A stretch of 64,000 nt of DNA, taken from the sequence record PP418986.1, one strand, 5' to 3'. The translations under genes and the position numbers were made by a program. Source of the DNA: Escherichia phage UPWr_E2. The notes below the pieces were generated by a model. It saw only the letters and a list, made by a program, of their open reading frames with translations. It was not told the origin of the DNA and searched no databases. Positions 10,816 through 19,371 of this stretch are shown piece after piece (position 1 is the first letter of the stretch; each line of letters opens with the position of its first letter).

Positions 10816-11448
10816 ATGAATATAGTATATTGGTTTACATTTGAAGACCGTGTCAAAAATAAGACTCCGCCATACTATTATATCGGTAGTAAATTAAATT
10901 GCTCATTTGAGAACGGAATAATATATGACTCTTCCGGAAAGGAATACTGGAGCTCATGTAAACAAAAAAGATTTTTGAATGCGCTAATGCTTCAAAAACC
11001 GAGCGTTAAAATAATTCAAATTGATGATGACTTGGATGTTATTGAAGCAGAACGAAAATACCAACTTGAAGTAAATGCCAGAGATAATCCAGACTATTTT
11101 AATCTGGTATATGCTGGTGGTGGATTTGGTGTGAGTGGTGAAACTCATCCAGCCAAAGACCCGGAAGTTAGAGAGCATATGAGATTGGCTAATTATATGA
11201 ACCGTGACGATTTTAGACCTTGGAAAACATCACGAGCTAATATAGAGTCTTGGAAATTATCTCATATTGCTTACGAGAATTATGTGTTATTATTATCCTC
11301 TAATCTGTACGGTAAAACTCCTGGATGGCGAAGAGTTAAAGGTAATATAAATATAACTGATACAACTGCTAAATCGATGGTAAAGTATTTCAACTCAGGT
11401 TGGATACCTCTCGAAGACCCAGAGTATTGCGAATTATGCCAGCTATGA
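10816..11448 (+). CDS. segG: free-standing GIY-YIG homing endonuclease, SegG-like
   Basis: 210 aa; N-terminal IVYWFTF...YYYIGSK GIY-YIG motif; sits between 59 and 32 where T4 segG lies. Confidence 0.75.
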   Translation: MNIVYWFTFEDRVKNKTPPYYYIGSKLNCSFENGIIYDSSGKEYWSSCKQKRFLNALMLQKPSVKIIQIDDDLDVIEAERKYQLEVNARDNPDYFNLVYAGGGFGVSGETHPAKDPEVREHMRLANYMNRDDFRPWKTSRANIESWKLSHIAYENYVLLLSSNLYGKTPGWRRVKGNINITDTTAKSMVKYFNSGWIPLEDPEYCELCQL

Positions 11449-13608: not shown

Positions 13609-14637
<1,029 letters not shown>

Positions 14638-14638
<1 letters not shown>

Positions 14639-15186
14639 TGAAACAATACCAATTTTTAATTAAAGATATCCTGGAAAATGGCTACGAAACCGATGACCGA
14701 ACAGGCACAGGAACAATTGCTTTGTTCGGTACTAAATTACGCTGGGATTTAACTAAAGGTTTTCCTGCAGTAACAACTAAGAAGCTCGCCTGGAAAGCTT
14801 GCATTGCTGAGCTGCTTTGGTTTTTATCGGGAAGCACAAATGTCAATGATTTGCGATTAATTCAACATGATTCGTTAATCCAAGGCAAAACAGTTTGGGA
14901 TGAAAATTACGAAAATCAAGCAAAAGATTTAGGATACCATAGCGGTGAACTTGGTCCAATTTATGGAAAACAGTGGCGTGATTTTGGTGGCGTAGACCAA
15001 ATTATAGAAGTTATTGATCGTATTAAAAAATTGCCAAATGATAGGCGTCAAATTGTTTCAGCATGGAATCCAGCTGAACTCAAGCAGATGGCATTACCGC
15101 CTTGTCATATGTTCTATCAGTTTAATGTGCGTAATGGCTATTTGGATTTGCAGTGGTATCAACGATCAGTAGATGTTTTCTTGGGT
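14638..15186 (+). CDS. td: thymidylate synthase, exon 1
   Basis: MKQYQFLIKDILENGYETDDRTGTGT...VDVFLG then in-frame TAA at intron start; 183 codons. Confidence 0.92.
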
Positions 15187-15506
15187 TAATTGAGGCCTGA
15201 GTATAAGGTGACTTATACTTGTAATCTATCTAAACGGGGAACCTCTCTAGTAGACAATCCCGTGCTAAATTGTAGGACTACCCTTTAATAATTTCATCAG
15301 GATTAGTTACTTATCGTGTAAAATCTGATAAATGGAATTGGTTCTACATAAATGCCTAACGACTATCCCTTTGGGGAGTAGGGTCAAGTGACTCGAAACG
15401 ATAGACAACTTGCTTTAACAAGTTGGAGATATAGTCTGATCTGCATGGTGACATGCAGCTGGATATAATTCCGGGGTAAGATTAACGACCTTATCTGAAC
15501 ATAATG
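15187..15506 (+). other. group I self-splicing intron in td, without the I-TevI ORF (320 nt)
   Basis: 5' junction ttgggt|taattgaggcctgagtataagg and 3' junction ...ttatctgaacataatg|ct match the T4 td intron core; only the last ~22 codons of I-TevI remain. Confidence 0.88.
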
Positions 15507-15818
15507 CTTCCATTTAATATTGCATCATATGCTACGTTAGTTCATATTGTAGCTAAGATGTGTAATCTTATTCCGGGAGATTTGATATTTTCCGGTGGTA
15601 ATACTCATATCTATATGAATCACGTAGAACAATGTAAAGAAATTTTGCGTCGTGAACCTAAAGAGCTTTGTGAACTGGTAATAGGCGGATTGCCTTATAA
15701 ATTCCGCTATCTTTCTACTAAAGAACAATTGGAATACATTCTTAAACTCAGGCCTAAAGATTTCGTTCTCAAAGATTATCAGTCCCACGGCGTCTTGAAA
15801 GGAAAAATGGCGGTGTAA
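15507..15818 (+). CDS. td: thymidylate synthase, exon 2
   Basis: continues LPFNIASYATLVHIVAKM...; exon 1 + exon 2 = 286 aa, T4 Td length. Confidence 0.92.
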   Translation, partial: LPFNIASYATLVHIVAKMCNLIPGDLIFSGGNTHIYMNHVEQCKEILRREPKELCELVIGGLPYKFRYLSTKEQLEYILKLRPKDFVLKDYQSHGVLKGKMAV

Positions 15819-16385: not shown

Positions 16386-18640
16386 TTAATGTTATCAAAA
16401 GTAGTGGTGTTTCTCAGAGCTTTGACCCGCAAAAAATTATTAAAGTTTTATCTTGGGCATCTGAGGGAACATCAGTAGATCCTTATGAATTATATGAAAA
16501 TATTAAATCATATCTCCGTGATGGAATGACAACTGATGACATTCAGACTATTGTCATTAAGGCTGCTGCGAATTCTATTTCGGTTGAAGAGCCTGATTAT
16601 CAATATGTAGCTGCACGCTGTTTAATGTTCGCTCTTCGTAAGCATGTTTATGGGCAGTATGAACCACGTTCATTTATTGACCATATTTCTTACTGTGTAA
16701 ATGAAGGTAAATATGACCCTGAATTATTGTCAAAATATTCAGCAGAAGAAATTACATTTTTAGAATCAAAAATTAAGCACGAGCGGGATATGGAATTTAC
16801 TTATTCCGGGGCGATGCAATTAAAAGAAAAATATCTAGTTAAAGATAAAACCACTGGTCAAATTTATGAAACTCCGCAGTTTGCATTTATGACTATTGGA
16901 ATGGCATTGCATCAAGATGAACCTGTTGATAGATTAAAACATGTTATTCGTTTTTATGAAGCAGTATCTACTCGACAGATTTCATTACCAACTCCTATTA
17001 TGGCTGGTTGCCGTACTCCAACTCGGCAGTTTAGTTCATGCGTTGTTATTGAGGCAGGCGATTCACTGAAGTCTATCAATAAGGCTTCTGCTTCAATTGT
17101 TGAATATATCTCTAAACGCGCTGGAATTGGTATTAACGTTGGTATGATTCGTGCTGAAGGTTCTAAGATTGGCATGGGTGAAGTGCGTCATACTGGTGTT
17201 ATTCCTTTTTGGAAACATTTTCAGACTGCTGTTAAATCATGCTCACAGGGTGGAATTCGTGGCGGCGCTGCTACTGCTTATTATCCTATTTGGCATTTGG
17301 AAGTTGAAAATCTTCTCGTTTTGAAAAATAACAAAGGCGTAGAAGAAAACCGCATTCGTCATATGGATTATGGTGTTCAGCTGAATGATTTGATGATGGA
17401 ACGATTCGGAAAGAACGATTACATTACTTTGTTCAGTCCGCATGAAATGGGTGGCGAGCTTTATTATTCTTATTTTAAAGACCAAAACCGTTTCCGTGAA
17501 TTATACGAAGCAGCAGAAAAAGACCCTAATATTCGTAAAAAGCGTATTAAAGCCCGTGAACTATTTGAATTGCTCATGACTGAACGTTCAGGAACCGCAA
17601 GGATTTATGTGCAGTTCATTGATAATACGAATAACTATACTCCGTTTATTCGTGAAAAGGCGCCTATTCGTCAGAGTAACTTGTGTTGTGAAATTGCTAT
17701 TCCAACAAATGATGTGAATAGTCCTGATGCTGAAATTGGATTGTGTACTCTCTCTGCATTCGTACTAGATAATTTTGACTGGCAAGACCAAGATAAAATT
17801 AATGAATTGGCAGAAGTTCAAGTTCGTGCTCTTGATAATCTGTTGGATTACCAAGGATATCCAGTTCCTGAAGCAGAAAAAGCTAAAAAGCGTCGTAACC
17901 TCGGTGTAGGTGTTACCAACTATGCAGCTTGGCTGGCAAGTAACTTTGCTTCTTATGAAGATGCTAATGATTTAACACATGAACTATTTGAGAGATTACA
18001 GTATGGACTCATTAAAGCATCCATTAAGCTCGCCAAAGAAAAAGGACCTTGCGAATATTATTCAGACACTCGTTGGTCTCGAGGCGAATTACCTATCGAC
18101 TGGTACAATAAAAAGATTGACCAAATCGCAGCTCCAAAATACGTTTGTGACTGGTCGGCGCTGCGGGAAGACCTTAAGCTCTTTGGCATCCGTAATAGCA
18201 CATTATCAGCACTTATGCCATGTGAGTCATCTTCCCAAGTTTCTAACAGTACAAACGGTATCGAGCCTCCACGTGGACCAGTCTCTGTTAAAGAATCAAA
18301 AGAGGGTTCCTTTAATCAAGTCGTGCCCAATATTGAACATAACATAGACCTATATGATTATACATGGAAATTAGCTAAGAAAGGTAATAAACCTTATCTT
18401 ACGCAGGTAGCTATTATGCTGAAATGGGTATGTCAATCAGCTTCAGCGAATACATATTATGACCCGCAGATTTTTCCAAAAGGAAAGGTTCCAATGTCAA
18501 TAATGATTGATGACATGCTATACGGATGGTATTATGGCATTAAAAACTTCTATTATCATAATACTCGTGATGGTTCCGGTACTGATGATTATGAAATAGA
18601 AACTCCAAAAGCCGATGATTGCGCAGCGTGTAAATTGTAA
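16376..18640 (+). CDS. nrdA: ribonucleotide reductase large subunit
   Basis: 754 aa, matches T4 NrdA from memory. Confidence 0.95.
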   Translation: MQLINVIKSSGVSQSFDPQKIIKVLSWASEGTSVDPYELYENIKSYLRDGMTTDDIQTIVIKAAANSISVEEPDYQYVAARCLMFALRKHVYGQYEPRSFIDHISYCVNEGKYDPELLSKYSAEEITFLESKIKHERDMEFTYSGAMQLKEKYLVKDKTTGQIYETPQFAFMTIGMALHQDEPVDRLKHVIRFYEAVSTRQISLPTPIMAGCRTPTRQFSSCVVIEAGDSLKSINKASASIVEYISKRAGIGINVGMIRAEGSKIGMGEVRHTGVIPFWKHFQTAVKSCSQGGIRGGAATAYYPIWHLEVENLLVLKNNKGVEENRIRHMDYGVQLNDLMMERFGKNDYITLFSPHEMGGELYYSYFKDQNRFRELYEAAEKDPNIRKKRIKARELFELLMTERSGTARIYVQFIDNTNNYTPFIREKAPIRQSNLCCEIAIPTNDVNSPDAEIGLCTLSAFVLDNFDWQDQDKINELAEVQVRALDNLLDYQGYPVPEAEKAKKRRNLGVGVTNYAAWLASNFASYEDANDLTHELFERLQYGLIKASIKLAKEKGPCEYYSDTRWSRGELPIDWYNKKIDQIAAPKYVCDWSALREDLKLFGIRNSTLSALMPCESSSQVSNSTNGIEPPRGPVSVKESKEGSFNQVVPNIEHNIDLYDYTWKLAKKGNKPYLTQVAIMLKWVCQSASANTYYDPQIFPKGKVPMSIMIDDMLYGWYYGIKNFYYHNTRDGSGTDDYEIETPKADDCAACKL

Positions 18641-19371
18641 TGAATTATCAAAAAATCTATAACGACCTAATTTCCCGAGCTCAGGCTCGGGAATCTTTAC
18701 TAGAATATAAAGAGACACATCATATAATCCCTAAATGTATGGGAGGTTCTGATGATAAGGAAAATTTAGTTGAATTAACAGCCAGAGAACATTTTATAGC
18801 TCATCTATTACTATGTAAGATAAATGAAGGCCATTTTGGTCTTGCCTCTGCGTTAACGTTGATGGCAACAGATAAAGCTGGCAATAGAATTAATAACAGA
18901 TTGTACAGCTTACACAGAAAATTATTTGCTAAAGCTAATTCTGAGTTCTTTAAGAAATATTGGAAAAATAATCCTCATCCTAAAGGGATGCTAGGCAAGC
19001 ATCATAAAAACGAAACTAAACAGCATGTATCTAACGTGAATAGATATGCGTGCCCATCTGTAGAAATACATAAATTCTCATTAGATGGGGATTTCATAGA
19101 AACCTTTCACTCTATTGCGGCAGCGTCCCGGTCAGTTAATGGAAACGGGTCAAATATCAAATATTGTGCCGAGGGTAAATTTCAATATGCTTATGGATTT
19201 AGATGGTCATATCAACTTGATGCAAAGTTTGACAAAATAAAACCAAGAGATTATAAAGGAATCCGCGGTAAGAAATGGATTAATAATGGAAGTGAATGCA
19301 CGCTTATAGGTAAAGATGATATTATACCGCCAGGTTGGAAACGCGGCAGAATTTTAAAGAGGAAAAATTAA
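18640..19371 (+). CDS. mobE: free-standing HNH homing endonuclease, MobE-like
   Basis: 243 aa; HHIIPKCMGGSDDKENLVELTAREH HNH motif; between nrdA and nrdB; TAATG overlaps at both ends. Confidence 0.8.
   Translation: MNYQKIYNDLISRAQARESLLEYKETHHIIPKCMGGSDDKENLVELTAREHFIAHLLLCKINEGHFGLASALTLMATDKAGNRINNRLYSLHRKLFAKANSEFFKKYWKNNPHPKGMLGKHHKNETKQHVSNVNRYACPSVEIHKFSLDGDFIETFHSIAAASRSVNGNGSNIKYCAEGKFQYAYGFRWSYQLDAKFDKIKPRDYKGIRGKKWINNGSECTLIGKDDIIPPGWKRGRILKRKN

Follow-up and report, generated by a model that had tools for sequence, protein, structure and literature searches.

Organization of the td Locus

The window (the whole stretch of phage DNA that was analyzed, 64 kb in length) was found to be a T4-like (Tequatrovirus) segment with the gene order frd, a 68-codon ORF, td, nrdA.2, nrdA.1, nrdA, an HNH endonuclease gene, and nrdB. 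Within this segment, the thymidylate synthase gene td is split by a short group I intron, and the locus is organized as follows:

14638..15186, plus strand: td exon 1, 549 nt with its ATG at 14638, coding for Td residues 1-183; length as in T4
15187..15506, plus strand: td group I intron, I-TevI-deleted allele, 320 nt, equal to T4 intron nt 1-106 joined to nt 803-1017
15187..15189, plus strand: in-frame TAA, the first codon of the intron, also present in T4
15506, plus strand: terminal G of the intron, with the 3' splice site between 15506 and 15507
15507..15818, plus strand: td exon 2, 312 nt including the stop codon; length as in T4

By direct reading of the sequence, exon 1 ends in ...TTCTTGGGT at 15186, and its ORF (14626..15189) is closed by the in-frame TAA of the intron. 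The intron ends in ...AACATAATG, and exon 2 begins with CTTCCATTTAAT at 15507. An earlier note on this DNA had described td as split at the canonical T4 site, with exon 1 ending in TTGGGT and a 320-nt intron that opens with an in-frame TAA, and the coordinates 15187-15506 were read directly and agree with this description. Joining the two exons yields a 286-aa Td in which the motif DVFLG/LPFNIASY is restored over the junction. This protein is equal in length to T4 Td and differs from it at 14 amino acids. Compared with phage fFiEco06, exon 1 differs at 1 of 549 nt and both exons together at 1 of 861 nt. In the GenBank records of PYps55T, HP3, and others, td is entered as a pair of separate 'thymidylate synthase' CDSs and the intron is left unannotated, and recognizing the intron is of value for annotation, as it restores a single 286-aa Td from the two fragments. 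The Elenatom record annotates three spurious 32-33-codon ORFs within the intron as hypothetical proteins, and the record of Klebsiella phage EI carries the note 'with intron of plasmid pMTL007C-E2'.

Other features of the neighborhood were recorded alongside. The 68-codon ORF between frd and td (14432-14638, plus strand) had no Pfam match; in T4, frd overlaps td directly. Phages N2, HP3, and SYGD1 carry a different ORF of ~116-119 codons in this gap, which marks the td 5' flank as a variable slot. A 210-aa ORF (10816-11448, plus strand), labeled 'homing endonuclease' in PYps55T and without a Pfam match at E<=0.01, is flanked by gene 32 (ssb) and gene 59 (helicase loader), where T4 has segG. 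A free-standing 243-aa endonuclease gene (18640-19371, plus strand) sits between nrdA and nrdB, which is the mobE/hef position in other T-even phages, and its product matched NUMOD1 (1.1e-5) and, weakly, HNH (9.4e-4) in Pfam. The nrdB gene itself is uninterrupted, with no nrdB intron found in the window using Rfam. Finally, the minus-strand distal long tail fibre gene (equivalent of PYps55T_084) contains a perfect 2.0-copy tandem repeat of a 349-nt unit at 387-1085 (100% match). The deposited PYps55T has one copy only, and the rest of the first 28 kb differs at 10 positions. This duplication in a receptor-binding tail fibre gene, together with the 10 differences, indicates that the window either is very closely related to PYps55T or represents an alternative assembly of it.

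Identity and Predicted Fold of the Intron

The Rfam group I intron model RF00028 matched 15177-15458 far above chance level, scoring 66.9 bits (E 8.5e-15) where the gathering score is 50, and model positions 1-253 of 253 were covered. No second group I match was found with Rfam in the whole 64 kb window, and the td intron is the sole one. Helices were named after what we take to be the published td structure, alongside the Rfam alignment, and were placed as follows:

15181..15200, plus strand: P1, exon UUGGGU (15181-15186) with internal guide GCCUGA (15195-15200), 6/6 paired
15201-15218, plus strand: P2, fully paired
15225-15230, plus strand: P3 5' strand, fully paired
15234-15239 with 15258-15263, plus strand: P4, fully paired
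15244-15246 with 15252-15254, plus strand: P5, fully paired
15264-15265, plus strand: P6 5' strand GC, pairs with 15354-15355
15271-15275, plus strand: P6a 5' strand UGUAG, pairs with 15344-15348
15276..15343, plus strand: residual P6a loop, 68 nt, the former seat of the I-TevI gene
15344-15348, plus strand: P6a 3' strand CUACA, inside the ORF remnant
15354-15355, plus strand: P6 3' strand GC, inside the ORF remnant
15361-15366, plus strand: P7 5' strand, fully paired
15367-15375, plus strand: P7.1, fully paired
15376-15394, plus strand: P7.2, fully paired
15400-15405, plus strand: P3 3' strand, fully paired
15406-15425, plus strand: P8, fully paired
15431-15436, plus strand: P7 3' strand, fully paired
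15441-15458, plus strand: P9 (this and the next two from the Rfam alignment and pairing check)
15461-15472, plus strand: P9.1
15475-15495, plus strand: P9.2

In the pairing check, all 14 of the 14 core helices from P1 to P9.2 were fully paired. The U15186-G15195 wobble in the 6-bp P1 marks the 5' splice site between 15186 and 15187, and the segment 15361..15436 contains the P3/P7 pseudoknot, which is the catalytic core. The group I ribozyme core that the earlier note had recognized was therefore borne out both by the Rfam score and by the P1-P9 fold check, in which every core helix was intact and the P3/P7 core was present. P7.1, P7.2, P9.1, and P9.2 are all able to form, which corresponds to the architecture of subgroup IA2. 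An unconstrained MFE fold recovered P2, P3, P4, P5, P6, P6a, P7.1, P8, and P9.1, with z = -2.4 vs. shuffles.

Outside the P6a loop, the intron shows zero differences from the full-length, I-TevI+ intron of fFiEco06 and a single base different from T4, at 15439 in J7/9, where the same variant is common to many I-TevI+ introns. The retained intron segments overall differ from T4 at 5 positions. Eleven td introns of six length classes were compared, and the region of P2, the P3 5' strand, P4, and P5 (15201..15263) was invariant over all of them. Standard pairs filled 99.4% of the pair cells vs. 30-43% with partners slid, and the variation always preserved pairing, including the P1 changes in relatives, where pairing was kept in all. 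One compensatory change (A-U to U-A) was found in P8 of phage N2, and a G-C to C-G change in P8 of Klebsiella phage EI was seen by eye, at a position that the alignment splits. In a covariation test on the 11 introns, 51 of 500 shuffles reached the observed score, a result that is not significant and under-powered, as the sequences are too similar; the case for activity consequently rests mainly on near-identity to the self-splicing intron of T4. From this near-identity and from engineered ORF deletions, we infer that the window intron would self-splice like that of T4. The engineered tdΔ1-3 intron self-excises despite the loss of its ORF (PMC6298092), tdΔP6-2 also self-splices without the ORF (PMC1920258), and the td intron tolerates circular permutation in P6a (PMC8554844).

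A contrary reading would treat the intron as a dead relic in which splicing is crippled, so that td is effectively a pseudogene and the phage uses the thymidylate synthase of its host. The phage can do without td on thyA+ hosts, which makes selection for splicing less than absolute, and the presence of td as two CDS fragments in GenBank would fit such a loss. Nevertheless, both exons are intact and in frame over 13 lineages that carry this intron form, no core helix is disrupted, and the core does not differ from that of I-TevI+ introns. Substitutions within the 320-nt class keep pairing, and decay is confined to the ORF remnant, where it takes the form of a 1-nt deletion in 235Ecol030PP and a Gly-to-Arg change in Elenatom and is visible nowhere else. 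Given in addition that engineered ORF deletions splice (PMC6298092), we regard a relic of this kind as very improbable.

Deletion Endpoints and the I-TevI Remnant

The td intron of T4 is 1017 nt long in NC_000866.4 and 1016 nt in close relatives. Alignment of the window intron to the T4 intron gave one single gap, in which nt 107-802 (696 nt) are missing, and alignment to the full-length intron of fFiEco06 (1016 nt) gave the same single gap. Two features are defined by this alignment:

15290..15293, plus strand: deletion joint ...TTTAATAA/TTTCATCAGG, last left base 15291 and first right base 15292
15291..15359, plus strand: I-TevI remnant, codons 224-245 (ISSGLVTYRVKSDKWNWFYINA) and a TAA stop at 15357-15359

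Read through, the joint is ...CTACCCTTTAATAATTTCATCAGG..., and the 2-nt AA microhomology at this point makes T4 nt 105-800, 106-801, and 107-802 equivalent descriptions of what was lost. The earlier note had proposed an internal deletion from a T4 intron of 'about 1 kb', with a joint close to this position and only the last ~22 I-TevI codons left without a start codon. All of these points held, with the full intron at 1017 nt, the endpoints at nt 107-802 in both alignments, and the true joint between 15291 and 15292.

In T4, I-TevI (245 aa) occupies intron nt 133-870 including its stop codon, so the deletion takes the sequence from within TTTAATAA/ATAC through codon 223. Lost with it were the I-TevI late promoter, the RBS, the start codon, and codons 1-223. 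Frame-0 translation over the remnant reads ...TAG, DYPLI, and ISSGLVTYRVKSDKWNWFYINA followed by the stop codon, the last part being residues 224-245 of T4 I-TevI. No ATG, GTG, or TTG was found between the upstream in-frame TAG (15273-15275) and the remnant, no ORF was listed at the remnant, and no intact, start-bearing homing endonuclease ORF was present there. The residues that remain are part of the I-TevI DNA-binding domain, a helix-turn-helix that Pfam PF20987 places at residues 192-242. The last codons of the remnant, ...TTC TAC ATA AAT GCC, serve as the 3' strands of P6a and P6, and a structural role in the core has been stated for the 3' end of the I-TevI ORF (PMC2988022).

The residual P6a loop holds the left part of the I-TevI operator/late-promoter region (CTACCCTTTAATAA) and 53 nt of I-TevI 3' coding sequence. 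In T4, the ORF is immediately preceded by the late promoter and, overlapping it, the I-TevI operator (PMC2988022), and the first ~16 nt of the region upstream of the ORF remain in the window. The kept half of the operator (CTACCCTTTAATA, 15278-15290) still resembles the start of exon 2, as has been described for the wild-type operator. We also considered whether the deletion and the three substitutions of this class make the operator more like the td homing site. This idea was dropped, as the identities were 22 vs. 21 gapped and 15 vs. 17 ungapped.

These contents of the loop bear on whether the 320-nt form could be ancestral, never having carried I-TevI, with the long form derived by HEG invasion. 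Such an order of events has a general precedent, in that introns without an ORF are considered to predate invasion by an HEG (Bonocora & Shub 2009, as cited in PMC10448857), and in the 254-nt td intron of phage N2, P6a is a short, neat hairpin. The loop of the window intron, however, contains 22 in-frame I-TevI codons and a stop, taken from a helix-turn-helix DNA-binding domain. These codons have a homologous counterpart in the C-terminus of a GIY-YIG endonuclease that is free-standing and not encoded within an intron. The loop also contains one half of the I-TevI operator/promoter. The codons and the operator half are leftovers rather than precursors, and an ancestral 320-nt form appears even less probable to us than a dead relic.

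Natural Occurrence of the 320-nt Allele

The segment 14600-15900 of the window was 100% identical to Yersinia phage PYps55T (MT515756), the surrounding 25 kb was ~100% identical, and a direct comparison gave 99.96% identity with 10 mismatches in about 27 kb. PYps55T was isolated in 2017 from faeces of a mixed aviary in the Tierpark Berlin (PMC8762354). The joint-bearing intron was found in 16 phage records from ~13 lineages, as a contiguous 320/320 match at 97.8-100% identity. The class includes PYps55T, 101112UKE3-1, C2-3, Shinka, MLP2, 235Ecol030PP, Pinarejo, SYGD1, U115, ESh30, HP3 and its derivatives, L14, and Elenatom, and its sources include at least four countries (among them Germany, Poland, China, and the USA). 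It is a minority form, with 16 records vs. ~161 that have an intact I-TevI 3' region.

The joint is identical base by base in HP3, SYGD1, Elenatom, and 235Ecol030PP, and all four share 15280 G>A, 15296 G>A, and 15299 T>A, within 20 nt of the joint. An identical joint flanked by three common substitutions argues that the 320-nt class descends from one deletion event. Among the ~161 full-length records, no allele with the joint-adjacent TCA TCA pair was found, and the best match (97.4%) differed by exactly those two mismatches. As the three substitutions near the joint occur in no full-length allele of the collection, the parental allele is unsampled and the exact deletion event is not reconstructable from it. 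Neither of the two ORF substitutions near the joint changes the amino acid encoded in I-TevI (TCG/TCT to TCA), a weak hint that the parent of the deletion was an unsampled I-TevI allele that was still functional.

The earlier note had left open whether the deletion was natural or engineered. ORF-deleted td introns are common laboratory tools (PMC6298092, PMC1920258), and one phage record, as mentioned above, notes similarity to a plasmid-borne intron; a laboratory derivative of the tdΔ1-3 kind or an assembly artifact would thus be conceivable. Against this, the context is that of a complete wild T4-like genome from zoo-bird faeces (PMC8762354), and the search of related phages recovered the identical joint in 16 independently sequenced records of German, Polish, Chinese, and US origin. 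The joint bears no scar of a linker or restriction site, no plasmid counterpart of the intron was found (0 of 72,556 plasmids searched), and the class carries natural polymorphism. Of the two options, the natural one is much the better supported, with a wild isolate (PYps55T) and 16 records on its side, and no plasmid match was found for the engineered one. An engineered or artifactual origin is the least probable of the explanations considered here, and the deletion is almost certainly natural. An exact 32-mer across the joint had no match in IMG/VR; 21-mer matches on 5 metagenome contigs had flanks unrelated to td and were rejected as chance matches, which leaves the joint absent from the metagenome collection.

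Mosaicism and Other Deletions of the td Intron

The 320-nt intron was found beside differing exon backgrounds. HP3, SYGD1, and Elenatom have the same 320-nt intron and an identical exon 2, whereas their exon 1 differs from that of the window at 38-43 of 549 positions (11-43 when 235Ecol030PP is included). The intron of 235Ecol030PP joins a 5' half of the window type to a 3' half of the HP3 type, and the exon 2 tail of this phage is very divergent. The full-length td intron is kept by seven sister phages from the zoo of PYps55T. The occurrence of one intron beside differing exons indicates that the HEG-less intron moved between backgrounds by recombination.

This mosaicism could also be read more strongly, with the intron as a non-autonomous mobile element that is copied into intronless td genes through I-TevI supplied in trans by a co-infecting I-TevI+ phage or through long co-conversion set off by the neighboring free-standing HNH endonuclease, and that is perhaps favored as a cheap, I-TevI-resistant allele. 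The identical intron and exon 2 beside exon 1 sequences with 38-43 differences are in keeping with such copying, as is the recombination within the class seen in 235Ecol030PP. The exons of the window differ at only 1 of 861 nt from an I-TevI+ phage, yet the loop remnant has the class-specific substitutions, which points to import of the intron rather than to a local deletion. There is also a documented case in the trans-homing of the defunct nrdB intron of T4 by mobE (PMC2790892), and an HNH/NUMOD1 endonuclease gene (18640-19371) lies 3.1 kb downstream in the window. On the other hand, the homologous recombination that is frequent in T4-like phages suffices for the mosaicism, a distance of 3.1 kb separates the intron from the HNH gene, which has no known cleavage site, and the intron is carried by 16 records vs. 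~161 and is absent from IMG/VR and the metagenome collection. We therefore consider active trans-mobilization unlikely, albeit less so than the other alternatives, and ordinary recombination of a natural, endonuclease-deleted td intron is the reading carried forward.

Relatives showed at least four further independent I-TevI deletions, each with its own microhomology joint:

445 nt class (G28, FL18, F1, FN, 112): two CATTTTAAA repeats, the 'RHFK' codon runs, recombined and left a stub of 55 codons in frame
315 nt class (Klebsiella phage EI): joint at a GGAAT repeat, with the promoter, the ATG, and six codons kept
262 nt class (PD112, CE1, 215Ecol030PP, BYEP01): nearly the whole loop gone at a TTG microhomology
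254 nt class (N2, CJY920, 236Ecol005PP, HMD-9, GRNsp7): P6a replaced by a short GTTC-TTTT-GAAC hairpin

Deleted forms were counted in ~35 records vs. ~161 that keep the I-TevI 3' region, so that ~1/6 of td introns are without the endonuclease. The stub of the 445-nt class is annotated as a 55-aa 'homing endonuclease'.

Phage N2 also encodes a free-standing 243-aa GIY-YIG endonuclease (ON645936, 143353-144084) that aligns to I-TevI over its full length at 46% identity (E 2e-71), with GIY-YIG, NUMOD3, and weak I-TevI DNA-binding domains. This GIY-YIG paralogue, convergent to td and in the nrdA.1 position, was present in 27 records of Escherichia, Shigella, and Klebsiella phages. A specific tie between the paralogue and ORF-less introns was considered and discarded, as it lies beside the ORF-less td intron in N2 but also beside intronless td in Ozark and KP179.

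Discussion

The feature at 15187-15506 is best explained as the td group I intron of the phage T4 type, in a natural allele that has lost its homing endonuclease gene, to which we assign a probability of roughly 90%. The intron would be transcribed within the td pre-mRNA and would fold into a ribozyme like that of T4. Free guanosine would then attack between 15186 and 15187, the 5' splice site that follows the U-G pair of P1, and exon 1 would be joined to exon 2 after the terminal G15506, giving an mRNA for the 286-aa thymidylate synthase. In unspliced pre-mRNA, the TAA at 15187-15189 would stop translation before ribosomes enter the ribozyme. Loss of the ORF would, in addition, end the conflict between I-TevI translation and ribozyme folding, in which ribosome traffic runs into the core; deregulated translation of I-TevI has been reported to reduce td splicing (PMC2988022).

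Without I-TevI, the intron would be unable to home on its own and would be inherited vertically and moved by ordinary phage recombination. In plasmid-to-phage assays, tdΔ1-3 homed at 1% and the intact intron at 33% (PMC1865063). As the I-TevI recognition site remains interrupted by the intron, the td allele should resist I-TevI from co-infecting phages. Loss of the ORF may bring a fitness gain. Trans-mobilization is possible but is unneeded to explain the data. One could go further and picture the 320-nt intron as a successful non-autonomous hitch-hiker that spreads among Tequatrovirus td alleles through I-TevI brought in by co-infecting phages or through co-conversion by free-standing endonucleases nearby, and that is kept for its immunity to I-TevI without the cost of HEG translation, with the repeated loss (at least five deletions) reflecting selection and not neutral decay. 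We offer this as a speculative and rather doubtful extension.

The closest known system is the T4 td intron with I-TevI (IA2, NC_000866), which shares the gene, the insertion site after ...TTGGGT, the P1-P9.2 core, the in-frame TAA at the start, and the terminal ...AUAAUG. Nt 107-802 of the T4 intron are absent from the window allele, which for this reason lacks an endonuclease, autonomous homing, and the autorepression circuit. The tdΔ1-3 and tdΔP6-2 introns of the Belfort laboratory, which have been used in retrotransposition reporters and RNA-chaperone assays (PMC6298092, PMC1920258), resemble the window allele by description in that the ORF is gone from the P6a loop. Those introns were made in vitro, whereas the window allele is natural, without a linker scar, and with natural polymorphisms.

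Natural parallels exist as well. The nrdB intron of T4 is likewise a T-even group I intron that has an internally deleted HEG and retains splicing, and its intact version survives in relatives such as RB3 (PMC2993671, PMC1865063, PMC2790892). It differs in its gene (nrdB), in its endonuclease family (HNH), and in the larger ORF relic in T4, and trans-mobilization by an adjacent mobE has been shown for it and not for td. Deletions of HEGs from peripheral loops are also known in derivatives of the lysin intron of S. thermophilus phages and in the nrdE/recA introns of the Bacillus cereus group, although those introns, hosts, and endonucleases are unrelated to those of td; internal HEG deletions that leave ORF remnants and spare secondary structure are general (PMC2504315). 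The td deletion is thus an already understood kind of thing and involves no new principle. A survey of T-even introns by Sandegren and Sjöberg (2004) reportedly found several HEGs with inactivating deletions. HEG loss from nrdB in T-even phages has been documented (Eddy & Gold 1991, as cited in PMC2993671). According to a 2010 review, each of the three T-even introns still encodes its own HEG (PMC2993671), so the td case may never have been singled out.

The degeneration of the HEG is a described stage of the homing-endonuclease cycle (PMC5009752), and the window allele would represent the stage of the birth-and-death cycle at which the HEG has degenerated and the intron still splices. In cultured T4-like phages, the td intron occurs in at least six states, the full-length form and five independent I-TevI deletions, which together provide a clean natural illustration of this cycle and population data of modest value. 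These states could serve to measure the rate of HEG loss and any trans-mobilization of HEG-less introns.
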